Translations under genes and position numbers: made by a program
The notes under the pieces: generated by a model
What the model was told of the DNA's origin: nothing
Seen by the model: only the letters and a program-made list of their open reading frames with translations
The model's database searches: none
IMG/VR virus record: IMGVR_UViG_3300012987_000001
Span: 1-64,000 of that record
DNA from: a virus
Strand: one strand, 5' to 3'
Length of the DNA stretch: 64,000 nt
Part shown: positions 24,539-55,037 of the stretch, piece by piece
How the letters are laid out: each line of letters starts with the position of its first letter
Numbering within the stretch: position 1 is the first letter of the stretch

Positions 24539-24578
24539 TCGTTTTTGACTCGGCGTCGAGCGCCGTTTCTTCGGTGGG

Positions 24579-25232
24579 CTAGTTGCAGATGTACTTGCAA
24601 TTAGAAGGGCAGACCCCACCAGGGGAGTCGTAGCTCTTCACTGTCGCCGTAGCGCCGACCTTGAGCAGGATCGTCGACGACTTGCTTGTGCTCGTCCAAG
24701 AAGCGCAGGTTGAACAGTGGTCGCGGGATACGATGCTGGAGGCTGAACACGTGGCGGCATCCGTTTGCTGCTCGTAGTCACCGGTCACCGCCAGACACGT
24801 ATTCACGGGCACGACGTATTCCGCGAACCCCGAGCACACCGCAGGCCCTGACCCGGCCTGCGCCGCGCCTGCCGATCCGCCCTGAGGCTCGCCGGCTGTG
24901 CCGCCCAAGCCGCCCTGCGCTCGACCACCAGCGCCTGCCAGCGCGCCGCCCGAACCAGCGTGACCCGCTCCGCCGCCGCTGCCAGCAACCGCAGGAGCCA
25001 CCGCGCGCGCCTGCTCGCCCGCGAGGCCAGCGCTGCCGGCTTCGCCCGCGGACGCCCCGCCGGTGGCCTGTAGCGCTCCGGCAAAGCCCGCCGAACCTCC
25101 ACCAGCCTGCGCTCCGCCAGACGCCGCTGCGACCCCGGCAGAGCCGCCCTGGTTGCCTTGCAGCGGCTCCTGAACCGCCGCCGACCCTGAGCACCCGAAC
25201 GCGAACACGACCAACAGACCCAGCCCTCGCAT
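24579..25232 (-). CDS. Secreted lipoprotein: lipobox signal, ~120-aa Gly/Ala/Ser-rich linker, 8-Cys C-terminal domain (moron inside the baseplate module)
   Basis: Track ORF. The N-terminus MRGLGLLVVFAFGCSG is a signal with Cys at +1. GGSAG-type low complexity follows, then a CxxxxxxxC-rich domain. It has short gaps on both sides instead of coupling. Confidence 0.75.
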   Translation of the reverse strand: MRGLGLLVVFAFGCSGSAAVQEPLQGNQGGSAGVAAASGGAQAGGGSAGFAGALQATGGASAGEAGSAGLAGEQARAVAPAVAGSGGGAGHAGSGGALAGAGGRAQGGLGGTAGEPQGGSAGAAQAGSGPAVCSGFAEYVVPVNTCLAVTGDYEQQTDAATCSASSIVSRDHCSTCASWTSTSKSSTILLKVGATATVKSYDSPGGVCPSNCKYICN

Positions 25233-27481: not shown

Positions 27482-28299
27482 CAGAATGAGCCAATTGCGT
27501 TACCGAGCGCGTCGTACATCACGTGCGCGACCGACTCATGCTCAGCCGCTTTGTTCGCTGGCTTGGTGCCCTGCGAGCCCTTCTTCTGCGTCGTGTTGGC
27601 GCGCGTGCTATCCGCGGCCGGCTTCGGAGCCGCTACCGTCTGCGAGCTGGCAATCCGAATCTGCTTGAAGTCGATTTGGAACTTCGCCGAGAGCCCGTCT
27701 TCGGTCGCGCGCGGCTGGCTCACCCGCGTCACCATCATGTCGGTGTAGTCGCGGTAAGCGGTCTGGATCAGGTCGAGGCGCACATGCTGGGACTTGAGCA
27801 GCAATAGCTTGTCGTAAACATCTCGCGGTCGATTGCGCGTAGCGTCTTGCTGATACGCGCGCGCGGTGACGTTGTTGGTTTGGCCGCTCGTAGGTCCAAG
27901 CGATGTCGCTTTGGGCGCGCCGAAGATGGCTTTCTTGAGCGCGCCAATTCCGGCCTGCACCAGACCAGATTCGCTGAACTGAATGGGCGGCGTCGGGATA
28001 TCTAGCGTGAATGTCTTCGTGCTCGGCGCGCTGCGTATGTCGACCTTGAGATCGACGCCACGCAGCGAAACGTCCGCGTCTAGCTGCGGGTTCGGCGTTT
28101 CAGAAACAACCGCCTCGATGCTCAGCATCGCCGGGTCATCACGCGCGTGGTCCGCAACGTTCGAGCCATCTTCGACCGGGTGATCGGTGACGGTTACCGT
28201 GTCGTCCTTTGTCTCGCCCGTGACAGCATCGAACTGCAGCGAAAGCGACTCGCCGCTGTCCGGGTCGGTCCAAAGCAGGCTCGTCTTGCTCAGAGCCAT
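27481..28299 (-). CDS. Tail/baseplate protein after the tape measure (Dit-like / DNA-circulation position)
   Basis: Track ORF with 1-nt overlaps on both sides. The motif is TVTDHPVEDGSNVADH. Confidence 0.6.
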   Translation of the reverse strand: MALSKTSLLWTDPDSGESLSLQFDAVTGETKDDTVTVTDHPVEDGSNVADHARDDPAMLSIEAVVSETPNPQLDADVSLRGVDLKVDIRSAPSTKTFTLDIPTPPIQFSESGLVQAGIGALKKAIFGAPKATSLGPTSGQTNNVTARAYQQDATRNRPRDVYDKLLLLKSQHVRLDLIQTAYRDYTDMMVTRVSQPRATEDGLSAKFQIDFKQIRIASSQTVAAPKPAADSTRANTTQKKGSQGTKPANKAAEHESVAHVMYDALGNAIGSF

Positions 28300-30065
28300 C
28301 AGCCGCCTTTCTTCGAGACCGCCGCCTGCGTCGCAAGTAGATCGCTACCCTTCTGCACGCCTTGCTTGGCGCCTTCGCTGGCTGCCTTCTGTATCTCTTC
28401 GGGCGTGTCCACGTAGAAATTCTGCTTGATTTCGGTGCGCACCGATTGATTGATCTCAGGCGCTTTGTCGGACGAAATGACGGGAGCAGTCGCGACGCTT
28501 GGCGCCAGCAGGTACGAAGCGTCACTCAGGTTGCTGCTGAGCGCCTCGGCAGCCTTCCCAGCTTTCTGCTTGATGCCCGAGTTCGCTGCATCCGCAACCT
28601 GCTGCGAGTCGATCCCGGTGAGCGCGCCGATCGCTTTCAGGTACCAGGGCTGATCGTAGTCTTCGGCTGCGGCGCGCCTACCTGGGTTACCGCGCAGCGC
28701 CGCGTCCCCGCGCGCCGCATCATTTGCTACTGTGTCACTCGCACTGAACAGTAGCTTGCCAATTGGATTGATGACCGCATTTTGCCCGACCCACTCGACC
28801 GCCCCGATAACCCACTTGAGCACCTTCGCCACCTTGTCGATGGCGACCGCGATGTCTCCGGCCGCGGCCACGATGGCGAGCATCGAATCAGCCATCTCGC
28901 CGAAGTCAGCTTTGAATTGCGGCTTCAGCGTGCCATTGATGTAGTCATTGAGCTGCTTCAGCTTCTCGTCGAGCGGCTTTCCATTCGTGAAGATCGAGAG
29001 CACCTCGCTGACGACAGGTCCGAAATCTTCGCTGAGTGCTTTCGCAAACGCCTGCACCTTGGCCACGGCGTCTGGCCCGAAGAATTTGGTGATCAGGTCG
29101 CCCGTGACCGACTTGCCACCGGTGAGGAACGTCCACACGTCCTCGATCGCCAGGAAGCCGAGCACGAGCGGAGCCAACTCGAGCAGGAGCCCGCGCAGGC
29201 CCGACTTCAGGAAGCCGGCTTTCTGGGCGAGCGCGACCATCGCCGAGATGGCCTTGGCTGCGCCTACCGCACCGAACACGAGCAGGCCAGCCTTAACAGC
29301 CTCCGAGTGGCGCTCGATCTCGATCAGCCACTTGATTAGCTCGACGCTCTTTTTGCTCATTTCGGTGAGCGTCGGGAGCAGTGGCTTGATCGCCTGAATG
29401 GCGAGTCCGCGGAATCCGCTAGTCAGGCGGTCTACGTTGTCGTTGACCTCCTGGGCGTCCGCGAGAAATGCATCGTCGAACGAGTTCCCTAGTTCATCAA
29501 CCTCGGCTCGGAGCTTCCGAACGCCATCCGCGCCCTCAAGTAGTAGCGGCGCTAGCCTATTGCCCGACTTGCCGAACAGCGCCATCGCCGCAGCGGTGCG
29601 CTTGGCCGGGTCCTCGACCTTGCCGAAGCCATCGGCAACAAGCTCGAGCGCCTCAGACGGCGACTTGTTCTTGACGTCTTGTGCCGTTACACCGAACAGC
29701 TTCAGCGCGTCGGCGGCAGGGCCTGCGCCCTTGGACGCCTCGGCCAGGTTTCGATTGAACTTGGTGAACGCCCCAGTGAACTCTTCCGCGCTCGATCCGG
29801 ATAGCTTGGCCGCCCACTGCCAGCCCTGCAGATCGGAAGTCGCCACGTTGAGCGACTGCGCTTGCTTGGCCAGGACGTCGGCGCTTTCGAGAACCTCTTT
29901 GGTGAAGTCGACGATCTTGTGGATGGCGAACGCGCCAACCAGCGCCTCGCCCATCTCGCCGAGCGTCTTCTTGAAAGACTCGACGCCGGCTTCGCCTTTC
30001 TTTAGGCCCGAGTCATCTACCTCGGTCCCAAAAATCGCCAATATTTCGCGGAGCGCGCCAGACAT
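28299..30065 (-). CDS. Tail tape measure protein
   Basis: Track ORF (588 aa), helical and Ala/Gly/Lys-rich. It lies immediately downstream of the frameshifted chaperone pair. Confidence 0.85.
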   Translation of the reverse strand: MSGALREILAIFGTEVDDSGLKKGEAGVESFKKTLGEMGEALVGAFAIHKIVDFTKEVLESADVLAKQAQSLNVATSDLQGWQWAAKLSGSSAEEFTGAFTKFNRNLAEASKGAGPAADALKLFGVTAQDVKNKSPSEALELVADGFGKVEDPAKRTAAAMALFGKSGNRLAPLLLEGADGVRKLRAEVDELGNSFDDAFLADAQEVNDNVDRLTSGFRGLAIQAIKPLLPTLTEMSKKSVELIKWLIEIERHSEAVKAGLLVFGAVGAAKAISAMVALAQKAGFLKSGLRGLLLELAPLVLGFLAIEDVWTFLTGGKSVTGDLITKFFGPDAVAKVQAFAKALSEDFGPVVSEVLSIFTNGKPLDEKLKQLNDYINGTLKPQFKADFGEMADSMLAIVAAAGDIAVAIDKVAKVLKWVIGAVEWVGQNAVINPIGKLLFSASDTVANDAARGDAALRGNPGRRAAAEDYDQPWYLKAIGALTGIDSQQVADAANSGIKQKAGKAAEALSSNLSDASYLLAPSVATAPVISSDKAPEINQSVRTEIKQNFYVDTPEEIQKAASEGAKQGVQKGSDLLATQAAVSKKGG

Positions 30066-31262: not shown

Positions 31263-32588
31263 TCAGACCGACAGCGTTCCGCTGATGTTCACGCCGTGAA
31301 GCGCGCCCGATAGGCGACCAGTGAACTTAGCCGAGCGCATGATTCGATCCGCGCGGTCGGCGACCGCTTGCTCGCTGGGCGGCAGGATCGTGACGACCGG
31401 ATCGACATCCGTTGTCAGTCCGTTGTTTGGCTCGCGCTGCCCACGCTTCAGCGTGTCGAGCATCGCGCCTTCGACCAAAGAGAACCCGCCGCGGTCGTAT
31501 GCGACCTTTGGGTTCTGATAGAGCACGGTGAACACCGCGAGTTGCATGGTAGCTCGGAGCCAGTCGACGAACCGGGTGACGTCGATGAATCGCTTGCTCG
31601 GCGTGCGACCTTCGAAGGTGATATTGAGTCCGCCTTGCGGCATGTAGCGCGAGAGGCGCTTGGTCTTGATGCCAGCCTTTTGACCGGCGCTGAGCTTGTC
31701 TGCCGAGATACCGGCGAGCGTCTTGAATGCTGCTGTGGCGTTGCCCGGCTCGAAGCTCAGGATCGAGGATAGCCAAGCGGCATCGATCCACTCAGTGCCA
31801 GCGACGTAGCCGTGCCACATGACGGCCGTGCGGGTGTACGCGAGCGTGACCAGCTCGGTTCCGACATCGCCCGACGTGACGCTGGCATCGGCGGCGTTCC
31901 AGTCGGCTGTCTTGCCGATGAAAATCTTGCCGTTCGCTTCCGCGTAGGCGCCGGCCGCCTTCACGTACACGCGCGACTGCGGCGCAATCGCCATGGCGTA
32001 CCAGGCGTTGTCTTCGGCTGCGATTGCTGCGAGTTCTGCTGCGAGACCAGCATCCGCTGTCACGTCGAGAAGGTTGATTCCCTTGCCCGGAACGAAGGAG
32101 ATCAGCTTGCCGGGCGTGCCCGCTGTGCAGACGATCTTGGTGCCCGAGGCGCCGGTTGCCGTGGTGCCTGCAGTGAGTCCGTTGATGAGCGCCGCAATGG
32201 CCGTGCAGACGCTGGCGATCGTGGCCGAGCCAGGAACGGTGTACGTCCACGAAAGGCCACCGACCGAGCCGCCCTTGTAGACGAAACCCTGCGTGGCACT
32301 CGTCGGGACTAGCTCGATAACCTGCGTGTAGACATGTGTGAGCCGACCGATTTTCACGGTCTGCGGCGCGTTGGGCTGCGACTTGAACGCCTGCATCATC
32401 AGATACAGGTCGTCCGTCACCAGAAACCCGTCCGTCAGCATGTCTGCCGCGGTGTCGTAGTCGCGCACCAGGTCGTCGACCCAGGCTGTGTGGTAACCGC
32501 ACAGCAGAGCAGTGTCGAAACTGGGCGCGTCGGGAACCGTGTCCTGGACAACGATGTCCACGCCTACGATGTCGTCGATATCGGACAT
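31263..32588 (-). CDS. Contractile tail sheath protein (DUF3383-like)
   Basis: Track ORF (441 aa) upstream of the tube gene. The pattern is recalled for DUF3383. Confidence 0.75.
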   Translation of the reverse strand: MSDIDDIVGVDIVVQDTVPDAPSFDTALLCGYHTAWVDDLVRDYDTAADMLTDGFLVTDDLYLMMQAFKSQPNAPQTVKIGRLTHVYTQVIELVPTSATQGFVYKGGSVGGLSWTYTVPGSATIASVCTAIAALINGLTAGTTATGASGTKIVCTAGTPGKLISFVPGKGINLLDVTADAGLAAELAAIAAEDNAWYAMAIAPQSRVYVKAAGAYAEANGKIFIGKTADWNAADASVTSGDVGTELVTLAYTRTAVMWHGYVAGTEWIDAAWLSSILSFEPGNATAAFKTLAGISADKLSAGQKAGIKTKRLSRYMPQGGLNITFEGRTPSKRFIDVTRFVDWLRATMQLAVFTVLYQNPKVAYDRGGFSLVEGAMLDTLKRGQREPNNGLTTDVDPVVTILPPSEQAVADRADRIMRSAKFTGRLSGALHGVNISGTLSV

Positions 32589-36434: not shown

Positions 36435-38198
36435 TCAGCCCCGCGCCTGGTCCTTGCTGGCGGCGAGCGGCTTGTTGAACATCTCGCGGTTGTTCTTCTT
36501 CATCTCCGCCTCGGCCTGCGAGACGATGTCATCCGCGGCGTCGACACGGGACACGGCCTTGTGCGCAGCCACGACGGAATCGATCCCGTCGGTGCGCGTG
36601 AACGTCTTGGACACGCTATCGAAGAGCGCCTGGACGTAATCGTCGGACTTGCCGTCGAACTTCTCTTCTTTCCAGTTCGCATCGGCGTTGATGCACTTGA
36701 TCATGATCTCGCGATCAGTCAGGCCATCGCACTTTTCTTCCGGGTCCTCGTCGTCCATCAGGAACTTAGCGGCGCGCTGGAGCAAGCGCAGGCGGGCGCG
36801 TACGCGGGCCTTTCCCTTCTCGCCCTTCTCCTGCTCGAGCTCGTCCTCGGCCATCTTCTTGGCCTTGGCGGCGGCGTCGAACTTGGCCTCGGCCTCATCC
36901 TTGGCCTTGATCGCGTCGGCTGCCTTCTTGTCGGCCTCCGCTGCATCGCTCTTGAACTTGGCGATCTGCGCGTTGTGCAGCTCGTCGATCTTGGCGAGGT
37001 GAGCGTCCGAGCCGACCTCGAAGTCTTTACCATCCAGGCGGATAGTCTTCATGATTTGGGTTTCCTCGTTGTCGACGCAGAAGGCGTCATGTGAATCCAA
37101 ACGGACCCCGACATCGGTGCCGGCGCGTCCTCGTCCCTTGGGCAGCACCGCTACATGGTTGTAGCGAATGTCCCGTTGAATCGCGTCGTAGCGCTCGCCG
37201 TCGAACACCCCTGGCGTGAAGTCGAGTTTGCACTCGTACCCACACGAGATGTCGGAGAGCTTCCCGTTCTCGACGTCGGCGACGGTAGCCGCGTCGTTGA
37301 TCACGAGCTCGCCTTCGACGTACCGCGCATCGGAGCGGACATTCTCGGTGTGCCCGAGGTTCGCCTCTTTCCAATTGTGCGGACCGATCAGCGATCGGTG
37401 GTGCGCCAGGTCGGTGACTGGTGCGCTCTGCAGCGTGGCCAGCGAGTCGGCGTTGAATACTTCGTCGGGGTGCCGCAGCTCGCGCCGGACTGAGCCATCG
37501 GCGAGCGTGTAGGGCAGGACGCCGATGCGGGTCAGGCGGGCATCGACACGGACGCCACCGACTTGGGTACGACGCACGCGGCCAGCGCGGCCCATCACGT
37601 CGAAGCGCTGAACAGCCTCGTCCGCGTCGGACTTACCGTATCGGTGCATGCTGAGAGCGCGCCCGGCCTCACTGGCCTTCTTGCGGCGCGCGGCCTCGGC
37701 TTCTTCCGGGCTGGGCTCAGTCGCGACAGCTGGATCCTGCGTTGCTAGCGCGCCAGCGTCCGCTGGCACGGTCACCACGCTAACTTCGGCGAGTTCGTTG
37801 TCTCGAAAGACAGCGACGCCGTTTTCTTCGGATTGATCGCCGTAGTCGAATCCGACCGAAATCCCGCGGACCTGCTTGGTGCGAACCAGGTCCCACACTT
37901 CCTCCGCGCGCGCGTTGCGCTCGTTGGCGAACGGGAACTGAATCCACAGCTCTAGCCCGCCATCGTTGGTGGGCTTGATGTCGACGCCTTTGCCGATCGG
38001 CGGCTTCTTGTCTTCGTGCGCCCAGAGAATTACTGGGTTGTCGAGAAACCGCTGAAGCTTCCAGCCGCGGAGCGACTCCAGCCGTTGCTGCCCATTGTCG
38101 TCGAACCCTTTGACGGGATCGCTCGTCGAGGCCACGACGTGGACGCGCCGCTGCCCCTCGTCGATACCTTCGAGGTTGAATGTTCGGCGTTTGGCCAT
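36435..38198 (-). CDS. Prohead protease (S78/HK97-like) fused to a DUF2213-like domain and a coiled-coil scaffold tail
   Basis: Track ORF (587 aa). The N-terminus has ..ILWAHEDKKPPIGKG..RGISVGF... The middle has ISCGYECKLDFTPGVFDGERYDAIQRDIRYNHVAVLPKGRGRAG. The C-terminal ~180 aa are charged and heptad-like. Confidence 0.75.
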   Translation of the reverse strand: MAKRRTFNLEGIDEGQRRVHVVASTSDPVKGFDDNGQQRLESLRGWKLQRFLDNPVILWAHEDKKPPIGKGVDIKPTNDGGLELWIQFPFANERNARAEEVWDLVRTKQVRGISVGFDYGDQSEENGVAVFRDNELAEVSVVTVPADAGALATQDPAVATEPSPEEAEAARRKKASEAGRALSMHRYGKSDADEAVQRFDVMGRAGRVRRTQVGGVRVDARLTRIGVLPYTLADGSVRRELRHPDEVFNADSLATLQSAPVTDLAHHRSLIGPHNWKEANLGHTENVRSDARYVEGELVINDAATVADVENGKLSDISCGYECKLDFTPGVFDGERYDAIQRDIRYNHVAVLPKGRGRAGTDVGVRLDSHDAFCVDNEETQIMKTIRLDGKDFEVGSDAHLAKIDELHNAQIAKFKSDAAEADKKAADAIKAKDEAEAKFDAAAKAKKMAEDELEQEKGEKGKARVRARLRLLQRAAKFLMDDEDPEEKCDGLTDREIMIKCINADANWKEEKFDGKSDDYVQALFDSVSKTFTRTDGIDSVVAAHKAVSRVDAADDIVSQAEAEMKKNNREMFNKPLAASKDQARG

Positions 38199-38303: not shown

Positions 38304-39170
38304 CTACTCGCTGTCGTCTTCGAGCTCAGGGACAACGAAGTACGGAACGCACCTGCAGCTGTAATCTTCGCCGGGTAGGTTCGTGTCGCCCGCTTCGTTG
38401 GTCACAGGCGGATCGTCGATGTCGAATGTCTGACCATCGAGGTCGTCATGCATAGGGCGCACGCGCTCATCACCCGCCGTTGTCCAAACGAACTGCGTAA
38501 CGCCAGCCGACTGCGCGCGCCCTACCGCGATCTGCGAGTTGAGCCGGTTGCCCTGGCTCCGCGCGATCGTCTCGGCGTGCCGAGTCGTGATGTCGAAGCG
38601 ATCCTCGATATCCTTCGCCAGCGCTTCGTACGTGCGGCCCGCGCCGTCACGCAGCAGCGCCTCAAGCTTGGCCTGCTCGGACTTGAACATCGTCTTGGTG
38701 AGAGCGACGTTCTCCTTGCGCCACTTGGGCACGTACTTGGCGACGCCAGGAGCCGAGTCCTTGAGCTTGATCCCGATACGCTTGAACTGCGCGTCGGAAT
38801 GCCGCTCAACGTCGGTTGCGACCCCACCGAGGCGCTTGGTGAACCAATCGGCTTCGGCCGTTGAGCTGTAGTCGCTCAGGTTAGCGTCGATTGATTCGGG
38901 CGCCTCATCCTTGGCATCCGCGCGGTCCTCGGGCTTGGCGATCTTCTTGGCGAGCGCGAGAGCTTGGGGTCCTACCCGCTTCCACCACTGCGCGACCAGT
39001 TGCCGCATGGCGACGCGATAGCGAATGACCGGGCCGTCTGGCGGCTGGACCGCTTTGGCGTAGCGAGCGGCGCGCGGGAGCTTGCGGCGGAGTTTGCGGG
39101 TGGGCTTTCGAATCGCCTTCCGCGTGAGCGCCTGAGACTTGGCAAGCGGCCGGCGGCGAGCGACCGCCAC
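38304..39170 (-). CDS. Head morphogenesis protein (Mu F / SPP1 gp7 family)
   Basis: Track ORF. The C-terminal motif TAGDERVRPMHDDLDGQTF......PGEDYSCRCV is typical of Phage_Mu_F. Confidence 0.8.
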   Translation of the reverse strand: MAVARRRPLAKSQALTRKAIRKPTRKLRRKLPRAARYAKAVQPPDGPVIRYRVAMRQLVAQWWKRVGPQALALAKKIAKPEDRADAKDEAPESIDANLSDYSSTAEADWFTKRLGGVATDVERHSDAQFKRIGIKLKDSAPGVAKYVPKWRKENVALTKTMFKSEQAKLEALLRDGAGRTYEALAKDIEDRFDITTRHAETIARSQGNRLNSQIAVGRAQSAGVTQFVWTTAGDERVRPMHDDLDGQTFDIDDPPVTNEAGDTNLPGEDYSCRCVPYFVVPELEDDSE

Positions 39171-41575
39171 TATTCCACCTCGGGTTCTTCGTGGTTTTCG
39201 ATCGCTACAGACAGAGCCTTTTCGCGTTCTACGAGCTCTGCATGGCGCTGCGTTGCCTCGGCCGCCTTACGTTCGCTGTGCTGCAACGCCTTTTCGCGAA
39301 TGGCGACTCTGCGCTCAGCTTTGACCACAGACTCTCGTGCCTTGGCGGCGTCTTGGATTGCGGTCGACGTGTGATCGACTTCCCCAAGGGAAGAGCCACC
39401 GAAGGACGGCTCTTCCGGCAAGCCTTCGAGATCCGTGTTGTTGGCCAGGTGCGAGATGAGCGGCGTTGCGCGGTTGAACTTGGCCTCGAGTTTGGCGGCC
39501 GTCTTGAAGTCGCCCTTCTCGGCTGCCTCGCGCGCCTGGGTAAGAATGGGGCCGATCTTGTCCGACTTTTTGAGCTCTTTCTCGATGGCCTTCCGATCGT
39601 ACCGGAGATCGTTTGCCCTCTCGAGCGCTGCGGCGCGGCTCTCGTATGTTCCGTTGCTGTCCTTCGCCGCTGCTCTAGATTCATCCTCTGCGCTCTTCAG
39701 CTCGGAAATCTTAGCCGTGGCCAACTGGCGCGCCTTCGCGTCGTTTGCGAAGTGCTCGCGCTCAGACTCAACAAGATCCCGCGTAGCCGCGGCACGCGCT
39801 TGCTCCTCAGCGTGCGCTTCAGTTTGGAGCATCTCGTGCTCCTCGCGGGCCTCGGATAGGCTATCCCTGGCCTCTTCAAGACGATCCCGAGAAACCTCTA
39901 CGCGCTCGCGCGCTGCGTCGGCTGCGTAGTCAGCTTTATGGGCTGCTTCCGAAACCTCTTCGTGCTGAGACTCGAGGTGCTCAAGCGTTGGCGCGCTTGA
40001 TACTCCACTGCCTTTTCCTGATGCGCCAGAGTCGCCACCTCCGTCGGAAGAGGCGAAGCGTCCATTGTCATCGCGGGGTTGGTCGTCAGCGTCGGAACGG
40101 CCGAAGCCGCCTCCGCCACCAAACCCACCACCGCCGTCATTCGGCGGCGGAGCACGCTCTTCGGGCGGCTTGGACAGGTCCTCCAGGTCACCCTTGAGTT
40201 CGGCCTCGCGTGCGGCTTTGCCCTCGTCGGTGAGTTGGATCTCGGAGTCGAATCCGTTGGGTTCGCCGAAGCGCTTGTTGGCCACCTCAGACGCGACCAG
40301 GATGCCGTTGGTCGTTGCAACCGCGTCGCCTTCCAGGATCGTCTTGCGAGTCTGCGCCGCAGTAAGCGGCGGCTCGGTCCAGAGCGGCGGGAAGCGAATA
40401 TCGATCCGCTCCGGCTTGGCGTTGAAGGCCTTGGTGGCCAGCATCACCTTGACGATGCGGCGGATCTTCGGCGCGAGCTTGCGGGTCTGCTCGCTGCGGA
40501 TGCGGTCGTAGAACCAGCGGAAGTCGCTGTCGCCGGTGGCGTTCATGCCCGCGGGCGACTGGCCCATCAGGATCGTGACCGGGATCTGAACGGCTGCGGC
40601 GAGGCGCAGCATGAACTTGTCGAGCGTCGCCGGGATGTCCGAGAACGACACCGATTGGCGGGTGAAGTCTTCTTTTGCCGAACCATCAGCGTCACCAGCG
40701 TCGACGACGATCGCGCGCATGACCGATCGACATAGGTCGATCATCTGCATGCGCTTTCGCATCTCCGTTTCGCCGTTCGCGCCGAGCAACTCAGCGAGCC
40801 CGGACATCTTGAAGACGGCCTGATTGGCGTCGGTGAGCAGGAGCTCGACCGCCTTCCAGCCGGTGTTGAACGCGGCGAGCGGCTGTACCGCGCGCTGTAG
40901 GACCGAGTGGTCCCAAGAGTTGTTTTGCTCGCGCTCGAGCGAGCCCGTGGTCGCGCCGCCGAAGAGCACTAGGCGGCTCTCATGCACGACCGCGATACCC
41001 ATGCCCGACGCATGCGAGGACACGGCCGAGACCATGTACGTCTCGGGCTGTCCAAGCTTCGGGCTGGCGGGGTCGGTGTAGTACGTGAGCGGCCACAGGT
41101 AGCGCCGATCGAGCACGTGCACGAACGCCAGCGACTTGGCCTTCTCTGGCACCAGCGGCGTCGCGGCAGAGCGGCCGTCGTCAGCCCCGAGCACGAGCGC
41201 GGCGCCACCGTAGAGGCGCCCCCAGCGCCAGGCGTCGGCTAGTTTGGCGTCGATTCCGAGCGCTTCGAGCTGGTCGGAGAATTCGGAGTTTAGGCCAGCG
41301 TCGCCCAGGTCGAGCGTGAAGCCCTCGCGCAGGAGCTCGTCCGGCACGATATCGATCATGCGCGCGGCTAGATCATCGCCGTGATACAGGTTCGAAAGAG
41401 CCTGATCGGAGAGGCGAATGCTGCCGACGTACTGCGTATACGTCGTTTTATCGATCGACGTGCCGAAGCCGGTGACCTGGTTCTGCCAGTCGTCGAGGCG
41501 GGTCGTCACGTCAGAGAGCTTCGTGATTGCTTCACGGCTCAGGCCTCGGAGGGCTTGGATCAGCTTCGAGGACAT
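39170..41575 (-). CDS. Portal protein (DUF1073-like core) with a ~350-aa Gly-rich and coiled-coil C-terminal extension
   Basis: Track ORF (801 aa) immediately after TerL. A portal-like core covers aa 1-450, followed by GGGGFGGGGGFG and a long charged helical region. Confidence 0.8.
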   Translation of the reverse strand: MSSKLIQALRGLSREAITKLSDVTTRLDDWQNQVTGFGTSIDKTTYTQYVGSIRLSDQALSNLYHGDDLAARMIDIVPDELLREGFTLDLGDAGLNSEFSDQLEALGIDAKLADAWRWGRLYGGAALVLGADDGRSAATPLVPEKAKSLAFVHVLDRRYLWPLTYYTDPASPKLGQPETYMVSAVSSHASGMGIAVVHESRLVLFGGATTGSLEREQNNSWDHSVLQRAVQPLAAFNTGWKAVELLLTDANQAVFKMSGLAELLGANGETEMRKRMQMIDLCRSVMRAIVVDAGDADGSAKEDFTRQSVSFSDIPATLDKFMLRLAAAVQIPVTILMGQSPAGMNATGDSDFRWFYDRIRSEQTRKLAPKIRRIVKVMLATKAFNAKPERIDIRFPPLWTEPPLTAAQTRKTILEGDAVATTNGILVASEVANKRFGEPNGFDSEIQLTDEGKAAREAELKGDLEDLSKPPEERAPPPNDGGGGFGGGGGFGRSDADDQPRDDNGRFASSDGGGDSGASGKGSGVSSAPTLEHLESQHEEVSEAAHKADYAADAARERVEVSRDRLEEARDSLSEAREEHEMLQTEAHAEEQARAAATRDLVESEREHFANDAKARQLATAKISELKSAEDESRAAAKDSNGTYESRAAALERANDLRYDRKAIEKELKKSDKIGPILTQAREAAEKGDFKTAAKLEAKFNRATPLISHLANNTDLEGLPEEPSFGGSSLGEVDHTSTAIQDAAKARESVVKAERRVAIREKALQHSERKAAEATQRHAELVEREKALSVAIENHEEPEVE

Positions 41576-41581
41576 TGGTGA

Positions 41582-42922
41582 TTACTTGGTTCCGCTCGCT
41601 TTCTGCAGAGCGGCGAACATGCGGCTCATGCGACCGGCTGCGTGATTTGCGAGCATCAGAGCCCAGGCGCGATCGGCGTGACCTGCAGCTGTGCGCGGCG
41701 CGTCGTAGCGAACATTTCCCGCGGCAGTGACGAGCCGCCGAATCGCGTACACGTCGTCACGGAGTAACGGGATCTCGTCGACCCCGTTGAAGATGTAAGA
41801 TGCGGGAAGCTCAAGTTCCTCCGACTGAATCACGTCGTAGAGCCCGGTGGCTAAGTCTTCTTTGGCACCAAGAGAGAAGTCGACTTGCTCGATCTTGGAT
41901 CCGTAGGTGTTACGGATGCGCTTTGACGGGAACAGCCCGAGCCCGGTCTTATCGATCGCGAGACGCTGGCACTTGTATATGCCGATCGCCTTGGCTGAGA
42001 GGTCGTCTAGCAGCTTGTCGTCGGTGAGCTTGTGCGACTCGAGGTGGACCAGCCTACGGCGGTCACCGATTCGCTTCACTACGGCAAGTGTCGTGCGGTC
42101 GCGTGACTCGCCAATGTCGAGCCCGCCATACGCGATACCTTCGTCGACAATCGCTGCGACGAATCGCTTCGCGAATAGGTCGCTCGGGATGTACTGCAGA
42201 TCATTGTCGAGGAACTTGCAGCGAAACCACTGGTCGAAGATGCGCGCGTCGCCCTTCGCCATCGCCCAACACTTGGCGAGGTCGACGGGGTATCCCTGCG
42301 CGATCGCATCGTCGATCGAGACTTCGAAATGCTTCCAGCCCTTGATCTTGCCCTTGAGGACACCGACCCAAAGCTGCTCGAATTCGTTCCCGATGCCGTT
42401 GGGCGTGGAGACGACTCGGAGGCGCCCGCCGAGCATCGTGACAGCGGCGGCCGCGTCCCAAACCTTGCCCGCGTGCTGCTGGTAGGCGTACTCGTCTAGG
42501 AAAACGTTTCCAGAGAAGCTTCGACCGCCGCTCGCCGGCAGGGCCTTGATGCGGCCACCCGACGCAAAGACGATCTCCTCAGCGTTCTCGCGAACGATGA
42601 TGGCCATCTTCGATCCCAGTGCAACAAGTACCTGGGCATGGAGCTTGGCCTTAAGCAGAACCTCTTTCGACTCGCGGTCACCAACACTGATGACGGTGGT
42701 CAGCTCGCCGTGGAACGCGCCCCACAACACGGCAACCGCCGCCGTCGTGTGACTAAATCCGGTCTGGCGAGCCTTGAGGCAAATCGCATAGGCGCAGAGC
42801 TCGAGCAGCCATTCGAGCTGGAACTTTTTGAACGTTGAAAACCACGCGGCTAGCGCGGAAAACTCATTCTGGGGGAGACTCTTCCGGTATCGCGGGAGGC
42901 TCGGATGAGTCTTCAGATCCAC
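41582..42922 (-). CDS. terL: Terminase large subunit
   Basis: Track ORF with a GTG start. Walker A-like is LKARQTGFS and Walker B-like is NVFLDEYA. It sits between TerS and the portal. Confidence 0.85.
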   Translation of the reverse strand: MDLKTHPSLPRYRKSLPQNEFSALAAWFSTFKKFQLEWLLELCAYAICLKARQTGFSHTTAAVAVLWGAFHGELTTVISVGDRESKEVLLKAKLHAQVLVALGSKMAIIVRENAEEIVFASGGRIKALPASGGRSFSGNVFLDEYAYQQHAGKVWDAAAAVTMLGGRLRVVSTPNGIGNEFEQLWVGVLKGKIKGWKHFEVSIDDAIAQGYPVDLAKCWAMAKGDARIFDQWFRCKFLDNDLQYIPSDLFAKRFVAAIVDEGIAYGGLDIGESRDRTTLAVVKRIGDRRRLVHLESHKLTDDKLLDDLSAKAIGIYKCQRLAIDKTGLGLFPSKRIRNTYGSKIEQVDFSLGAKEDLATGLYDVIQSEELELPASYIFNGVDEIPLLRDDVYAIRRLVTAAGNVRYDAPRTAAGHADRAWALMLANHAAGRMSRMFAALQKASGTK

Positions 42923-45775: not shown

Positions 45776-46467
45776 TCTTCGGACTCCACTGGATCGGCGT
45801 CGTAGCGGCTGGTGCCTGGATCAGTGATCGGCATAGCGAGCCCAAACCCGCTCGGCTTTGGGTTCGTCCAGTCGAGCGGCCCAATCGCCGGTAGCGCCTT
45901 CAGCGCCCAACTCGGCGTGGACTCGTCCGGATCGGCGACCCCGCGCGCGCGCCGGATCGCGCACTCGCTCGACGCAAACTCGTTGCGCAATTCGTGCGGT
46001 AGGTTGCACCACATCTCAAGCGTTCGCCCGGGCGCCATCGCAATCCACTTGTCGGCGGCGATGGTCCAATCGACCGAGAACCAGGCGCGTGGACCGATTG
46101 GGATATCGACAATAACCAGAGGTCCCGGAGCGTTGCCTACTTGCTCCGTATCGGCTGCATTCTTCTGCCGACCCCATGCCTGCACAAACGCAACTTCCTG
46201 CCAGTCTGGGTCGCACACTGTGTCACCGATCGGCCATTCGAAGACTGATGCCTGCCTGATGCTCCACCCGTCACGCTCGAAGTCGTACTCGATGCGGATG
46301 TCATCGGCCGCGCGCACGTCGACCAGGCCGACTATCACTGCGACCGGGTTATCGAAGCTCCGCGGGCTGTCGGGATCGTTCTTGCTTCTCGGGTACCACA
46401 GATCAACCGAGAGCGTGTCGTCTCGGAAGCGAAGGTCACCTGGTGCCGTTGGCTTTTCTTTCATCAT
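45772..46467 (-). CDS. Hypothetical protein (231 aa)
   Basis: M23 of ORF 45772..46533, with an ATGA overlap with the DnaB stop. Confidence 0.6.
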   Translation of the reverse strand: MMKEKPTAPGDLRFRDDTLSVDLWYPRSKNDPDSPRSFDNPVAVIVGLVDVRAADDIRIEYDFERDGWSIRQASVFEWPIGDTVCDPDWQEVAFVQAWGRQKNAADTEQVGNAPGPLVIVDIPIGPRAWFSVDWTIAADKWIAMAPGRTLEMWCNLPHELRNEFASSECAIRRARGVADPDESTPSWALKALPAIGPLDWTNPKPSGFGLAMPITDPGTSRYDADPVESEE

Positions 46468-47906
46468 CTCTCCCTCCAATCGTCGGGTGGTTCGTGGCTC
46501 TGCTGCTGCTGATAATCGAAGCTTGCGCCCCACTCGTCGTGCTCGTCCGCCGGCTCTTGCGTGTCGACGTACTTCGTCGCTTTCGGAATGAACTCGACGT
46601 TCACGGTGCCAGATCTGCCCGCGCGCGCCTTCGCGACAATCAGTTCGCCCTTGTTGTCCTTGGTGTCGCCGGGCTTTCGGTACTGATCTTCGCGGTACAG
46701 GAAAATCACGTTGAACGAGTCCTGCTCAATCGCTCCGGAAGAGCGCAAATCGCCAAGGTTAGGCCGCTTATCAGCGCGCTTCTCGACTTCGCGATTCAGC
46801 TGCGAGAGTAGCACGATGGGCACGTCGAAGTCCTTCGCCACCGCGCACAATCCGCGCATGACGTGCTCAAGCTGGTCGTTCGTGTTCATGCCTCGCGGCA
46901 GATCTCCGAAGCCCATCAACTGCAGGTAGTCGATCGCGACGATCCCCAATCGCACCGGAAACAGTGATCGCTGGTGGCGCCTCAGCGCAGATCGGATCTC
47001 GGTCACCGTGATCGATGCCTTGTCATCGATGATGATCGGCATCTGCCGAATCGCGTTCGCTGAGTCCATAACCTTCACGAGATCCGGACCGCTGATGACG
47101 CCGGTGTCGATGCTGCGCGTATCGACCAAAGACCACTGCGCCATGAGCTTGTTGCCGATCTGATCCTTCGGCATCTCGAGCGAGAACATCACGCCGCCCG
47201 TGGCCTCGCTGTTGTCGCTTGCGCCTTGGACGAGCAGCTCGGTGACGAACGAAGTTTTGCCCATGCCAGGACGGGCGGCGACCGTCGTCACTGTGCCGCG
47301 CTTCAGGCCGGCAATGAGCCGGTTCAGCCCCTTGTAAGGTGTGAGTTTGCCGCTTGGGATCTCACCGCGGCGCTTGCGGTGCAGGTCCGCAATGCAGCCG
47401 GTCAAGATGTCTTTGACGCGCGCGCCAGTCTCCGTGCGCACGCTATCCTGGCTGATGGCGTACATCTGCGATTCGGTCGCCTCGATGAACGCCTGCACGT
47501 CTCCGACGTCCGGCCCGTATCCCGTGGCCTCGACGCGCTGGCAAAGGGCGATCAACTGCCGAAGGCGGTACTTCTCGCGGATGCGTTTGGCGTGCGGCGC
47601 GACGTTGGCCACCGACGGCACGCAGTCCGACAGCATCGCGATGTAGGGCGTGCCGCCGATCTGATCCAGCCGGCCGGCGTCCCGAAGCCAGCCGGCGACG
47701 CTCACGTAGTCGACCGGCTTGCCCGTCGCCTGCAGTGCGAGCGCCGCTTCGTAGATCCGCCGGTTGGCGTCGGCGTAGAAGTGCTCGGGGCCCAAGATCT
47801 CGGAGGCAACCAACAGGGAGTCGGGGTCGAGCAGGGCAGCCGAGAGCACGGCGGCTTCGGCGTCGAGGTCCGAAGGCGGGACGCGACCGGGGGCGGGGGC
47901 GCTCAT
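46464..47906 (-). CDS. dnaB: Replicative DNA helicase DnaB
   Basis: Track ORF (480 aa). The N-terminal motif is PPSDLDAEAAVLSAALLD. Walker A is ARPGMGKTSF, followed by DYLQLM and RSSGAIEQD. Confidence 0.93.
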   Translation of the reverse strand: MSAPAPGRVPPSDLDAEAAVLSAALLDPDSLLVASEILGPEHFYADANRRIYEAALALQATGKPVDYVSVAGWLRDAGRLDQIGGTPYIAMLSDCVPSVANVAPHAKRIREKYRLRQLIALCQRVEATGYGPDVGDVQAFIEATESQMYAISQDSVRTETGARVKDILTGCIADLHRKRRGEIPSGKLTPYKGLNRLIAGLKRGTVTTVAARPGMGKTSFVTELLVQGASDNSEATGGVMFSLEMPKDQIGNKLMAQWSLVDTRSIDTGVISGPDLVKVMDSANAIRQMPIIIDDKASITVTEIRSALRRHQRSLFPVRLGIVAIDYLQLMGFGDLPRGMNTNDQLEHVMRGLCAVAKDFDVPIVLLSQLNREVEKRADKRPNLGDLRSSGAIEQDSFNVIFLYREDQYRKPGDTKDNKGELIVAKARAGRSGTVNVEFIPKATKYVDTQEPADEHDEWGASFDYQQQQSHEPPDDWRER

Positions 47907-52518: not shown

Positions 52519-52895
52519 TTGGATACCGCCTCTTCTGGCCACTCGGCGGCCATGGCCTCGGCTACCTGCTCAGGGTCGATTCCGAGCTCGAGCTCGAGGT
52601 AGCCGGCCATCATGGGGCGTTCTGCGTTCGGCAGCGTGCGTATGAAGCCGATCAGCCGGTGCATCTCCTCCACGTCGATCGGGATGTCGTTGTCTTGCTC
52701 TGGGCGCTGCGGCTTCCAGTAGCCGGGGCTCTCCTTGGCAGCCGTTCGGACATCGGCCAGCGGGGCCGCGGCGGTCTCAGCTAGCCCCGCCTTTCGCAGC
52801 GCGCAGACGAAGCGCCCGAGTACGCACGATGCGCGCAGACAAGAGACGCACACCGTCACTGGATCATTGAACGGGACTTGGGCGGGGAGTTTCAC
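52515..52895 (-). CDS. Hypothetical protein (126 aa)
   Basis: Track ORF. Confidence 0.6.
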   Translation of the reverse strand: MKLPAQVPFNDPVTVCVSCLRASCVLGRFVCALRKAGLAETAAAPLADVRTAAKESPGYWKPQRPEQDNDIPIDVEEMHRLIGFIRTLPNAERPMMAGYLELELGIDPEQVAEAMAAEWPEEAVSK

Positions 52896-53509
52896 GCTCC
52901 ACCTCCCACCCCAGCCACGAACCCGGTGGGGTGGCCGCGCAGTCCGTCCGAAGCTGCTTCACTGAGCGCGATGGCGAAAGCTTCAGCTTCTGGATCGGGG
53001 AAGTTGAGAGCGGCGAAGGGTCCGAAGACTTCCAGCGCCTTGTGGTCGTAGGCGCGCGCGGCCTCTACCGGATCGGTGAAGACTCCAAGGTAGAGCTGGC
53101 GCCGCTTCCCGTTGGCTTTGATCTCGCCGCCGCAGATCGAGGCCTGCCATTTGGCGGCCGCTTTGTTCCACGTAACCCCCTTGTAGCCGCCGAGCTTCTG
53201 GCGCTTGGAGCTGGTGACGTTGGTCGCGTTCTCGCGGTGGGTGGCGAAGCGGAGATTGCTCCGACGGTTGTCGAGCCCGTCACCGTTCTCGCGGTCGACC
53301 CATTGGCTCGATTCCACGCCAAGAATGAAGTGGTGCAGCGCCTGCTTCGAGCGTCGCCCGGGCAGATCGCGCTGGGCGTAGCAGCGGCCCGGATCGGACG
53401 GCTTGCGCTTTACGTGCCACTTGAGCGCCAGCACGCGTTCGGCGTCGGCAGCATCGACTAGGGCGAACAGGCCGGTGCGCCCGAGGCGGACCTGGATCGG
53501 CCCGGTCAC
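52892..53509 (-). CDS. HNH_3-like plus AP2 DNA-binding domain protein (homing-endonuclease-like; first HNH His replaced by Arg)
   Basis: Track ORF with a GTGA overlap with the integrase stop. The motifs are WVDRENGDGLDNRRSNLRFATHRENATN and YKGVTWNKAAAKWQASI...YLGVFTDPVEAARAYD. Confidence 0.7.
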   Translation of the reverse strand: MTGPIQVRLGRTGLFALVDAADAERVLALKWHVKRKPSDPGRCYAQRDLPGRRSKQALHHFILGVESSQWVDRENGDGLDNRRSNLRFATHRENATNVTSSKRQKLGGYKGVTWNKAAAKWQASICGGEIKANGKRRQLYLGVFTDPVEAARAYDHKALEVFGPFAALNFPDPEAEAFAIALSEAASDGLRGHPTGFVAGVGGGA

Positions 53510-54795
53510 TTGACGCCCCCGATCCGCTGGCCTTCGATCGCGACCAGTTCGAGCACCCTGGCGCGGGCCAGCCGGTCGGTGCCCATCCGGTAGGCGAGCC
53601 GTGTGGCCTCCAAAACATTGGCCGCCTGCTCGCTGGATTCACCCGTGGAACGCTTGTGGAATTCCTCTACCGCAAGCCCCGAGAACCCTTGCAAGTTCCG
53701 AGGATTCGTAAACCGCAGGTCTCGAGTTCGAATCTCGAAGTCGGCTCTGGAGTTACGCGACTCCGTAACCTCGCCGTGGAATCCCGTGCCGGCGCCCGCT
53801 TTCTTGAGGGTCTCGGCGAGGAAGTGCGCGTAGCGCTCAGTGACTTTCACGCTCGAGTGACCGAGCATTTGGCAAACCTCGTCGAGCGACCACTTGCGGC
53901 CCCACCAGCCGGCAAGCAGTGATGTCGCGCACGTGTGGCGCAGGTCGTACCAACGAACCGGACGCTTGATGCCGGCCGCCTTGAGCCAGCGTGACCAACC
54001 GCTCGGGTGACTGTCGTGCCAGCGAGCCTCATTCGTTCGCGGGGAAGGGAAGGCGAGGAGGCATTTGCGCTTTTGGCGATCGACCGCTTCCCGGGCGGCT
54101 TCGAAGCCCACGCCGAACAGTGGGACCCGGCGGATCTTCTTGTTCTTCGTCTTGCGGAAAATGACCTCGCGCCGATCTAGGTCTACGTCGGACAGCAGCA
54201 GGCGCCACTGCTCGGAATTGCGGGCGCCGCAGCCGAGCGCGAACGCAGCCGTATGCCACTCCTCGACCGGGACCGCGTTGAGAAGCGAGAGTTGTTCGTC
54301 CGGATAGAGGATGGTCCAGGACTCTTCTTCCTGGGCTTCTTTGCGGCGACCTACCCGGACTGTGCTCGCGACGTTCTCGGTCACCAGTTCGCGGTCGAGT
54401 GCCTCGGTGAGCGAGACGCGCAGGAGCGACAACGCGTTCTTGCGCGTTTGGTGATCCAGGGCGAGGGATGTCTCGAGCCACTCCAGCCAATCTAGAACGT
54501 GGACGCGACGAAGATCGCGAAGCGGCGCAGGGCCGAGGGCGCTGCCGTCGATGTAGAGCTTCCAGCGGTTCTCATCGTTCGACCAATCGGATACTTTCAG
54601 ACGGCGGCGCGTTAGGAACGCGGTGCCGAACTCGGACAGCGAAAGCCCGCCCTTTTTGGGTAGCGGCCGCGTGAGTGCGAGCTCTGCCTCTTCTTTGGTC
54701 GGGAAGGTGCCGAGCGGCACGTACCGCTTGGTAAGCGGATCCTTTTTGCGCGCGCGCCACCGACCAGACGGAAGTTCTTCAAGTGCTCCGCTCAT
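53506..54795 (-). CDS. int: Tyrosine integrase with a ~107-aa extension after the catalytic Tyr
   Basis: Track ORF (429 aa). The N-terminal arm-type segment is GRWRARKKDP..LGTFPTKEEAE. The catalytic region is WYDLRHTCAT...LGHSSVKVTERYAHF. Confidence 0.9.
   Translation of the reverse strand: MSGALEELPSGRWRARKKDPLTKRYVPLGTFPTKEEAELALTRPLPKKGGLSLSEFGTAFLTRRRLKVSDWSNDENRWKLYIDGSALGPAPLRDLRRVHVLDWLEWLETSLALDHQTRKNALSLLRVSLTEALDRELVTENVASTVRVGRRKEAQEEESWTILYPDEQLSLLNAVPVEEWHTAAFALGCGARNSEQWRLLLSDVDLDRREVIFRKTKNKKIRRVPLFGVGFEAAREAVDRQKRKCLLAFPSPRTNEARWHDSHPSGWSRWLKAAGIKRPVRWYDLRHTCATSLLAGWWGRKWSLDEVCQMLGHSSVKVTERYAHFLAETLKKAGAGTGFHGEVTESRNSRADFEIRTRDLRFTNPRNLQGFSGLAVEEFHKRSTGESSEQAANVLEATRLAYRMGTDRLARARVLELVAIEGQRIGGVK
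53705..53746 (+). other. attP-core candidate: 3' half of a tRNA-Thr(CGU)-like sequence, antisense inside the int ORF
   Basis: TTCGTAA / ACCGC / AGGTC / TCGAG-TTCGAAT-CTCGA / AGTCGGC / T corresponds to anticodon loop, stem 3' strand, variable loop, a perfect T-arm, acceptor 3' strand and discriminator. The 5' acceptor partner is absent. Coordinates were calibrated on int codons. Confidence 0.6.
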
Positions 54796-55037
54796 TCGCC
54801 TTCGCTTTCTAAAACCGAGAGCGCCTTTCGGCAGTCAGTCAGCACCAGCCCCGCCGCGCTCGTGGGTGAGCTGGCTATTTCGCCCAGCTTCACGATCGCA
54901 TCGACCAGCGGAGCCTTGGCGGCGTGGACTCTGCGCTGGAGGTCCAAGTGATCGTCGCAGCCGCAGCGACGCGAGTCGATCAGGCGCGATGCGGCGCGGC
55001 TCGCGGGAAGTGGGGACGCGCGGTTCACTGGATCCAC
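54792..55037 (-). CDS. Hypothetical small protein upstream of int (81 aa; excisionase role not supported by motifs)
   Basis: Track ORF with an ATGA overlap with the int start. Confidence 0.5.
   Translation of the reverse strand: MDPVNRASPLPASRAASRLIDSRRCGCDDHLDLQRRVHAAKAPLVDAIVKLGEIASSPTSAAGLVLTDCRKALSVLESEGE

Follow-up and report, generated by a model that had tools for sequence, protein, structure and literature searches.

The integrase gene and its tRNA-derived segment

The stretch of DNA considered here, hereafter the window, comprises positions 1-64,000 of the viral record IMGVR_UViG_3300012987_000001, a contig of metagenomic source, that is 64,000 nucleotides (nt) in all. Its minus strand carries the gene of a tyrosine integrase (int), and inside this gene, on the opposite strand, lies a copy of the 3' part of a threonine transfer RNA, tRNA-Thr(CGU). 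The account that best explains the observations as a whole, and which we hold to be very probable, is that this copy is the core of the phage attachment site, attP, placed antisense within the phage's own int gene. The argument is built on the following features.

53506-54795, minus strand: tyrosine integrase gene, 429 residues, in its free-phage (attP) form; the sole long open reading frame (ORF) there
53830-53832, minus strand: codon of the catalytic Tyr322, in the motif ERYAHF
53683-53781, minus strand: region coding for a predicted disordered linker, residues 339-371, which holds the tRNA-derived peptide
53521-53679, minus strand: region coding for a predicted C-terminal three-helix module, residues 373-425
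53705-53747, plus strand: probable attP core, antisense to int codons 350-364; it reproduces tRNA-Thr(CGU) from the anticodon loop onward, through the discriminator base and as far as the first C of CCA

The protein matches the integrases of PHROG 1, and its Phage_integrase domain (Pfam) spans residues 182-325. Tyr322 is invariant in an alignment of 42 sequences, and 107 residues follow it. Homologues are numerous (436 at E<=1e-20). About 2.8 kb of the source contig lies outside the window, the longest contig being of 66,840 nt. The best structural matches found with Foldseek are the Int of Tn1549 and full-length lambda Int, at 15-18% identity, the match to lambda Int taking in its N-terminal arm-binding domain. 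The N-terminus is AP2-like, with a weak AP2 match at residues 10-40, and PF26003 is the precomputed Pfam assignment of close homologues. As modelled, the integrase is structurally an enzyme of the lambda/Tn1549 type, with a predicted N-terminal arm-binding domain.

Beyond the catalytic Tyr, the AlphaFold2 model, made from the 42-sequence alignment (mean predicted local distance difference test score, pLDDT, 83.8), has a linker with pLDDT <50 and no secondary structure, followed by three helices (373-382, 386-401 and 408-425; pLDDT 66-92 in blocks of ten residues). No known domain is detected in this tail by Pfam or PHROG. It is conserved in the full-length relatives among the 42 aligned, down to about 42% identity, and the ratio of its non-synonymous to synonymous substitutions (dN/dS) is 0.18, so that the C-terminal module has to be seen as a selected protein part of the free-phage enzyme.

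The tRNA-like segment had been noticed in a preliminary description of this DNA, which read positions 53705-53746 (plus strand) as an anticodon loop TTCGTAA, the 3' strand of an anticodon stem ACCGC, a variable loop AGGTC, a T-arm made of TCGAG, TTCGAAT and CTCGA, an acceptor strand AGTCGGC and a discriminator base T; the letters are exactly those. Its extent stands on the left and has to be moved on the right, where identity to the tRNA goes on for one more base, to 53747, the first C of CCA: the whole of 53705-53747 matches positions 31-73 of tRNA-Thr(CGU) exactly. The same description rightly placed the segment 28-42 codons past the catalytic Tyr322, in what we number codons 350-364, within the C-terminal extension of about 107 residues. 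It was also right in seeing there the 3' half of a tRNA, not a tRNA gene: ARAGORN calls no tRNA gene in the whole window, GAGGA, which occupies the place of the 5' strand of the anticodon stem, can form only three of the five pairs with ACCGC, and the 5' acceptor partner GCCGACT is not found upstream of the segment. A complete cloverleaf, with 5' acceptor strand and D-arm, is recognized in the segment neither by ARAGORN nor by the Rfam tRNA model. The latter, when presented with a stretch starting at 53705, aligns 53705-53746 with its positions 31-71 out of 71, as a tRNA truncated at the 5' end; the score of 21.2 bits (E 0.011) does not reach the gathering score, which is 29, and a longer stretch with the segment inside gives no match. 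Where 0.02 occurrences of the 17-nt T-arm are expected, the window has one, and it holds the core a single time. At 43 of 43 positions the core is identical to the 3' part of a tRNA-Thr(cgt) called by ARAGORN in L004, a related lysogen (contigs are designated by L, proteins by P). The identity block covers tRNA positions 31-73 or 31-74 in the group of the window, and 30-74 or more in others.

Integrated relatives

In three independent integrated relatives (L002/L003, L004 and L016) the homologous int gene runs antisense into a full tRNA-Thr(CGU) and meets its stop codon in the D-loop, which gives the protein a rewritten end, ...RFTKPLLYH or ...VYESTALPLS. That integrated relatives should have their junction at this very point, with a modified int 3' end, was what the preliminary description had led one to expect. 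Three proteins, P0032, P0046 and P0047, end in ...IRT[RP]DLRFTKPLLYH, where full-length proteins go on with ...DLRFTNPRNLQGFSGLAVEEF...; the contigs of P0046 (L002 and L003) and of P0047 (L004) each have a tRNA-Thr(cgt) called by ARAGORN on the opposite strand, overlapping the 3' end of int; argJ and a PDZ gene, both of the host, come next in L002 and L004, with phage genes upstream. The sequence KPLLYH with its stop results from reading the tRNA antisense through the 5' strand of its anticodon stem and its D-arm, the stop codon falling in the D-loop. The tRNA of L004 reads GCCGACTTAGCTCAGTGGTAGAGCAGCGGT-TTCGTAAACCGCAGGTCTCGAGTTCGAATCTCGAAGTCGGCTCCA, and its positions 31-73 are identical to 53705-53747 of the window. 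In the second type, L016/L021, int ends in ...SRLSDLNRRPVLYES followed by TALPLS and a stop, entering the tRNA at the contig end.

Free and integrated forms part company at one place. The free phage L022 (P0040), with phage genes on both sides, is colinear with the integrated L002 up to ...GGTTTACGAA, and in the DNA alignment all similarity is then lost exactly at the 5' edge of the anticodon loop. Compared through their protein C-termini, the free forms L012 and L013, which read ...VLYES followed by AGEGKE..., and the integrated L016 also cease to be homologous at this edge. Int ends rewritten by the tRNA are found in 6 of the best 120 family proteins out of 436.

The host target and the place of strand exchange

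L032, a 56.8-kb contig of the sample SRR13842641, encodes an ArgJ that is 100% identical to that of the L004 lysogen from the sister sample SRR13842642, and has bacterial genes on both sides of its tRNA-Thr(CGU): this is an empty site. On the argJ side, the flanks of L032 and L004 are identical at 161 of 162 positions, and two more empty sites, L034 and L035, are marked by a 96% identical ArgJ. The named homologues of ArgJ all come from Polyangia-type taxa (the names being cut short to 'Polyangi' or 'Pol'). At these three empty sites the native tRNA-Thr(CGU) matches the window core at 41 of 43 positions, with 25 uninterrupted bases; it differs at two bases of the T-loop, which is TTCAAGT in L032 and TTCGAAT in the L004 lysogen, the latter form being that of the window, L001, L006, L023 and L024. 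A host tRNA sharing with the segment at least about 30 nt of identity, on which the preliminary description had made its interpretation depend, therefore exists, be it the native gene (41/43) or the tRNA at the L004 junction (43/43).

Lysogeny alters the host tRNA-Thr(CGU): the T-loop TTCAAGT of L032 (9765-9838) has become TTCGAAT in L004 (11110-11184), where the junction tRNA is composed of a host 5' part and a phage 3' part. Since the lysogen associates the host 5' half with the phage T-loop, and the empty site has the native T-loop, the crossover has to be placed between the anticodon loop and the T-loop, and we may delimit in the window a block as follows.

53705-53729, plus strand: putative strand-exchange block of 25 nt, from the anticodon loop TTCGTAA through the first three bases of the T-loop, placed by the chimera seen in L004 compared with L032 and by the break between L022 and L002

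Judging from these sequence comparisons, strand exchange must occur in this block, and the likeliest overlap region would be the 7-nt anticodon loop (53705-53711), by analogy with the integration sites of anticodon type in tRNA genes, which form the basis for placing exchange in the loop (PMC4383910).

The same antisense tRNA-derived motif is present in P0111, assigned to a metagenome-assembled genome (MAG) named Methylibium sp., hence betaproteobacterial. The integrase family may extend beyond Myxococcota, or the contig of P0111 may have been mis-binned.

Selection on the core DNA

Silent sites were compared in five relatives (the window, L001, L006, L023 and L024). The third codon position is variable in 315 of 427 codons overall, against 1 of 16 in codons 350-365, and the number of synonymous substitutions per synonymous site (dS, Nei-Gojobori), which is 1.1-1.3 in codons 1-336 (N-terminal, core-binding and catalytic regions), is 0.054 in the core, a drop of more than 20-fold with respect to the rest of int. 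The longest invariant run of the gene, 45 nt (53695-53739), lies on the core. Eleven distinct phage-borne cores make use of seven T-stems (TCGAG/CTCGA, CGGGG/CCCCG, GTGAG/CTCAC, GTCGG/CCGAC, CCGGG/CCCGG, GCGAG/CTCGC and TGGGG/CCCCA), with all 55 cells paired; compensatory changes affect four of the five pairs, and none of 500 shuffles reaches the observed score. Because the T-stems covary in this way across the 11 cores, the phage copies must be following functional host tRNAs. The constraint upon the core thus bears on the DNA and not on the peptide.

The way in which the core is translated was established with our own motif classification of the best 120 family members. The core is read antisense in the frame of the window in 73 of the 120, in the second frame in five, and in the third in P0095, an integrated form which reads ...CGLRNRCSTTELSRP through the 5' half of the tRNA; a tRNA-Thr-derived peptide is found in 88 of them. 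Members that read the core antisense in different frames comprise L012, L013, L015, L016, the pair P0049/P0056 and P0095. P0049 (L031, 3001-4278) and P0056 align over their full length and share their tail, yet the core is translated in one frame in the former and in another in the latter, and past the core their frames coincide again; frame 2 of the P0049 DNA gives the P0056 peptide. The situation of the tRNA-derived peptide (residues 350-364) in a flexible linker explains this tolerance of frame changes. In at least 10 of the 120 members the peptide comes from the sense strand. At the DNA level, this is seen in L018, where the 3' part of tRNA-Thr(CGU) lies in sense orientation at 2997-3040 within an int gene at 1884-3194 (plus strand); P0067, P0068, P0083, P0118 and P0119 belong to the same subfamily, with peptides such as GKFVKHRSSVQIRQSAP. 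In this sense-orientation subfamily, only residues encoded past the 3' end of the tRNA would be altered by integration.

Sequences flanking the core

The neighbourhood of the core contains several short sequences that might be recognized by the integrase.

53695-53704, plus strand: phage-specific flank GTTCCGAGGA by the core, replacing the 5' anticodon-stem strand and included in the 45-nt invariant run; candidate core-type integrase-binding half-site
53643-53650, plus strand: left copy of the repeat CCGTGGAA, in the third-longest invariant run (53643-53655); candidate arm-type integrase-binding site
53656-53665, plus strand: GTGGAATTCC, related to CCGTGGAA, beside its left copy
53774-53781, plus strand: right copy of CCGTGGAA, in the second-longest invariant run (53774-53790), on the side staying with int; candidate arm-type integrase-binding site

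The CCGTGGAA motif is found four times in the 64 kb, and two of these occurrences flank the core, the CCGTGGAA / GTGGAA repeats being about 131 nt apart. Its left and right copies are read in different codon phases. The pair is found again, with the same spacing, in L001, L005, L006, L023 and L024, and one copy is present also on the int side of the L004 junction.

A further motif, GTTACG/CTTACG, is located at 53751-53756, 3-5 nt past the 3' end of the tRNA copy, and is the reverse complement of the CGTAA of the anticodon loop; it recurs at the equivalent position in L001, L006, L009, L016, L023 and L024, the attP regions of which are otherwise divergent.

A scenario for integration

We infer that the window phage itself integrates as its relatives do. 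Its integrase would recombine the core with the chromosomal tRNA-Thr(CGU) gene; the strands would be exchanged somewhere between the anticodon loop and the T-loop, the 7-nt anticodon loop being the likeliest place, and a working tRNA would be rebuilt, its 5' part coming from the host and its 3' part from the phage. The reading frame of int would then run antisense into the 5' part of this tRNA and stop in its D-loop. With an attachment site on the bacterial side (attB) of the L032 type, the window attP would yield ...CGG TTT ACG AAA CCG CTG CTC TAC CAC TGA, that is Int(1-363)+KPLLYH, a prophage form of 369 residues in which six residues would take the place of the 66 of positions 364-429; this KPLLYH C-terminus is the one observed in P0032, P0046 and P0047. 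The DNA coding for residues 364-429 (53506-53704, minus strand) would be carried to the far end of the prophage: the three-helix module would be found there, together with the HNH/AP2, replication and virion genes, beside the displaced native 3' fragment of the tRNA. As for the tRNA-Thr(CGU) of the lysogen, its T-loop would be that of the phage, and in the case of the window phage its acceptor stem would be followed by TCT in place of TCC. A practical corollary is that short integrases ending in ...KPLLYH beside tRNA-Thr are to be annotated as prophage-form genes, not as pseudogenes.

By analogy with Mx8, loss of the C-terminal module may change the activity or the directionality of the integrase in the lysogen. 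It is tempting to go further, and to speculate that the window holds the first recognized member of a large undescribed integrase family of Polyangia phages, in which the core is lodged in a disordered linker (in three frames and both orientations) and the tethered module would be a sensor of the integrated state, its removal by integration turning an integration-proficient enzyme into one that depends on a directionality factor. This proposal is put forward tentatively, and we deem it rather unlikely to hold in all its parts.

The genome around the integrase gene

Downstream of int, the large terminase, portal, tail and other genes recognized with Pfam and PHROG all lie on the minus strand. 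The main features elsewhere in the window are listed here.

8402-9316, minus strand: lysozyme (GH25)
23312-24619, minus strand: baseplate wedge
28299-30065, minus strand: tape measure
31263-32588, minus strand: tail sheath
36435-38198, minus strand: head protease / major head
39170-41575, minus strand: portal
41582-42922, minus strand: large terminase
46464-47906, minus strand: DnaB helicase
52892-53509, minus strand: HNH/AP2 endonuclease (Pfam AP2 and HNH_3, both under the curated cut-offs; PHROG 99, HNH endonuclease, E 2e-26)
54792-55037, minus strand: ORF of 81 residues overlapping the start of int; candidate directionality factor by its position
62-63.6 kb, plus strand: exonuclease and PD-(D/E)XK nuclease (Pfam)

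Judged by its tail sheath and baseplate genes, the phage is myovirus-like; a search of the phage collection with DNA and protein identified no close relative. The phage most closely related to it, L001, belongs to a MAG assigned to Polyangiaceae. Since int is intact and is found amid the phage genes of this myovirus-like genome, the window is in unintegrated order, in agreement with the preliminary description, which had noted phage genes on either side of int. With the same high confidence as for the attP core, we see in the window a temperate phage of Polyangia (Myxococcota) that is myovirus-like and in its free form.

The start of the HNH/AP2 gene, whose product is an endonuclease of homing type, overlaps the int stop by 4 nt in the window and by 8 nt in L031, where the order of the two genes is the same (HNH/AP2 gene at 4271-4813); among the genes downstream of int, which would all be separated from it by integration, this one comes first. 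On the other side, the 81-residue ORF has no match in Pfam or PHROG and no similarity to Uoi of phage Mx8. It is 45% identical to the equivalent ORF of the L004 lysogen; across the integrase family, this small ORF upstream of int is not conserved. In a related free phage, L022, DnaB (20787-21155 and beyond) contains an intein, with a Hom_end_hint match and weak LAGLIDADG_3 matches.

Alternative readings

The anatomy of the locus, its host target, the junction in integrated relatives and the selection upon the core DNA are matters of direct observation. Several points nevertheless weigh against a full acceptance of the scenario proposed here. No lysogen of the window phage itself was found, and the integrated examples come from relatives that are 40-55% identical to it. 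A 34-nt core pattern, sought in 185,579 species-representative genomes, was met in no tRNA gene, but only in the related phage L001; the same pattern gave nothing in IMG/VR and, in the metagenomes of the Joint Genome Institute (JGI), retrieved only the attP-form relatives L005 and L006. The reciprocal junction, which would combine the C-terminal remnant of int with the displaced 3' fragment of the tRNA, was not found: scanning IMG/VR with the L016 core gave one copy per contig, the protein search with a 79-residue C-terminal piece gave only P0121, a full int cut by the contig edge, the profile search with the C-terminal module gave three free forms and L036, and the pattern of the tRNA-Thr 5' part gave, in IMG/VR, tRNA arrays of unrelated phages (L026, L027 and L029) and tRNAs at contig ends without this int (L028 and L030). 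Finally, the candidate arm-type sites are proposed from their conservation and position, and so is the directionality-factor candidate of 81 residues.

Some of the objects encountered in these searches deserve mention for their own sake. The viral contig L036 (positions 1-223; IMGVR_UViG_3300037797_000104) starts inside the T-arm of the core, after which comes the C-terminal module of int, with the same sequence as the C-terminus of P0016; a trimmed prophage end would account for this, and so, equally well, would a break in the assembly at the shared att core. The arrays of 7-13 tRNA genes of L026 (8957-10033), L027 (4659-5735) and L029 (2301-3007), in unrelated large viral contigs, include a tRNA-Thr(CGU) matching the same 39-nt degenerate pattern, from the D-arm through the anticodon arm. 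L028 (6230-6304) and L030 (55-126) are IMG/VR contigs that end at tRNA-Thr(CGU), with no relative of this integrase in the DNA fetched, and a different integrase family may use the same tRNA-Thr(CGU) there.

Among the competing explanations, the one that fares best accepts the attP as described and denies any regulatory meaning to the exchange of C-termini: the ORF would simply read through, the tail being dispensable or having an unrelated role. That the tail after the core is wholly different between subfamilies would fit well with this idea, as would the absence from it of a known domain, a catalytic domain that is complete without it, and the sense-orientation relatives, where integration would touch only residues beyond the tRNA end. 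Yet purifying selection acts on this tail (dN/dS 0.18), a fold is predicted for it (block pLDDT 66-92) and it is kept in the 42 aligned relatives down to about 42% identity; furthermore, the equivalent change alters the behaviour of the Mx8 integrase (PMC6070905). We consider that the absence of regulation is possible and somewhat doubtful.

The remaining explanations fare much worse. The conserved DNA might be mainly an RNA element, a tRNA-like structure or an antisense regulator of int, instead of a recombination site, as the tRNA reads in sense on the strand opposite int, and its T-arm is able to fold; but there is only half a tRNA, the limits of conservation are those of the host tRNA identity block and of the observed junctions, and the orientation with respect to int flips in one subfamily, unlike what a fixed antisense regulator would require, so that we rejected a function in RNA only as very improbable. 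That the window be an integrated prophage and the segment a remnant of its left or right junction (attL or attR), which its nature of metagenomic contig extending some 2.8 kb further would permit, has been dismissed as scarcely credible, in view of an int of full length with a conserved tail, phage genes over tens of kb on each side with no host gene directly beside 53705-53747, and a window lacking both the tRNA 5' half and a second core. Just as implausible is the view that the segment resembles a tRNA by accident, or that it is the inert trace left by a former recombination with a tRNA gene and has ceased to be an attachment site, as might be suggested by the silence of ARAGORN and of Rfam on the embedded segment: we discarded it in the face of 43 identities out of 43 with a real tRNA 3' part, a dS falling more than 20-fold exactly at the core, T-stems covarying perfectly in 11 variants that track different host tRNAs, and relatives integrated at exactly this point.

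Comparison with known systems

The reading of 53705-53747 as an attP core housed in int has a precedent in the Myxococcus phage Mx8, already invoked in the preliminary description: the Int of Mx8, too, has a tRNA piece antisense after its catalytic region (PMC6070905). In both cases we have the tyrosine integrase of a myxobacterial phage, a tRNA 3' piece antisense in int after the Tyr, and a new int C-terminus (PMC6070905; PMC4383910). According to a review, integration of Mx8 gives int a new 3' end, and it modifies the behaviour of the enzyme without inactivating it (PMC6070905); for Mx8, the Islander paper cites Tojo 1996 (PMC4383910). The piece in Mx8, with a T-arm ACGGG TTCAAGT CCCGT followed by ACTCCTC G CCA, is at residue 415 of 533, and there also a small ORF overlaps the start of int. 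Several of the features that define the Mx8 type are present here, namely the tyrosine integrase of a temperate phage, a core located in int 3' of the catalytic Tyr and an attB in the 3' part of a host tRNA; the shorter new int C-terminus is seen in relatives (L002/L003, L004 and L016; 6/120) and is predicted for the window phage.

The differences are no less clear. Tested by sequence similarity, the window integrase does not join the IntP protein family of Mx8 (BLASTP E 0.67), and Mx8 is not among the tblastn matches in the phage collection. The small upstream ORF is unrelated to Uoi, the phage is myovirus-like and not P22-like, and the identity block starts at the anticodon loop, whereas no such loop is seen in the part of Mx8 that was inspected. 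Mx8 has tRNA-Asp as its target, against tRNA-Thr(CGU) here. In short, the window case works like Mx8, while its integrase appears to be outside what can be detected as the Mx8 IntP protein family. The Int of Mx9 is grouped with that of Mx8 as another attP-within-int system.

Among the sites in tRNA genes, those of the anticodon-loop class carry the label 'A' in the Williams classification. In this class the identity block goes from the anticodon loop to the tRNA 3' end, and the element carries a 3' fragment with which the tRNA is regenerated (PMC4383910). This is the situation found here, with identity from the anticodon loop to the tRNA 3' end and a break of homology at the edge of the loop. 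The attP of that class is mostly outside int, however, and Islander treats an overlap with int as an exception, for which Mx8 and SSV are named (PMC4383910). The 'suicidal' integrases of the archaeal SSV type likewise have their att within the int gene, which is split by integration (PMC8371274). In contrast to the present case, in these enzymes, described as exclusive to archaea, it is the recombinase proper that is divided, and it may be inactive once split (PMC8371274); here the Pfam domain (residues 182-325) and the catalytic residues are all upstream of the split at 363/364, 42 codons past the Tyr. A last parallel is with mycobacteriophage BPs, where attP is inside a phage gene and integration changes the C-terminus of the product, signalling the integrated state (PMC4557955, PMC3694055). 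The gene concerned in BPs is that of the repressor, not int. Lambda Int and Tn1549 Int, the best structural matches at 15-18% identity, are heterobivalent tyrosine recombinases. Neither is known to have a disordered linker of roughly 35 residues and a three-helix module after the Tyr helix.

Polyangia are hard to engineer, and depend at present on tools of the Mx8/Mx9 type. The genetic tools for these bacteria have been reviewed (PMC11610982), and the integrase, with its attP of roughly 450 bp and the tRNA-Thr(CGU) attB, is a candidate site-specific integration tool for Polyangia (Sorangium-type bacteria). In addition, its relatives, with free and integrated forms, an empty site, three frames and two orientations, offer a comparison set for studying the coexistence, in one piece of DNA, of a coding sequence and a recombination site. 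An arrangement where integration edits int is not confined to one lineage of Myxococcus phages: it recurs in an integrase family without detectable similarity to the IntP of Mx8, across uncultured phages of Polyangia. The placement of attP in int was already known from Mx8; the interest of the present case is chiefly its comparative breadth, and the possible tool for Polyangia.

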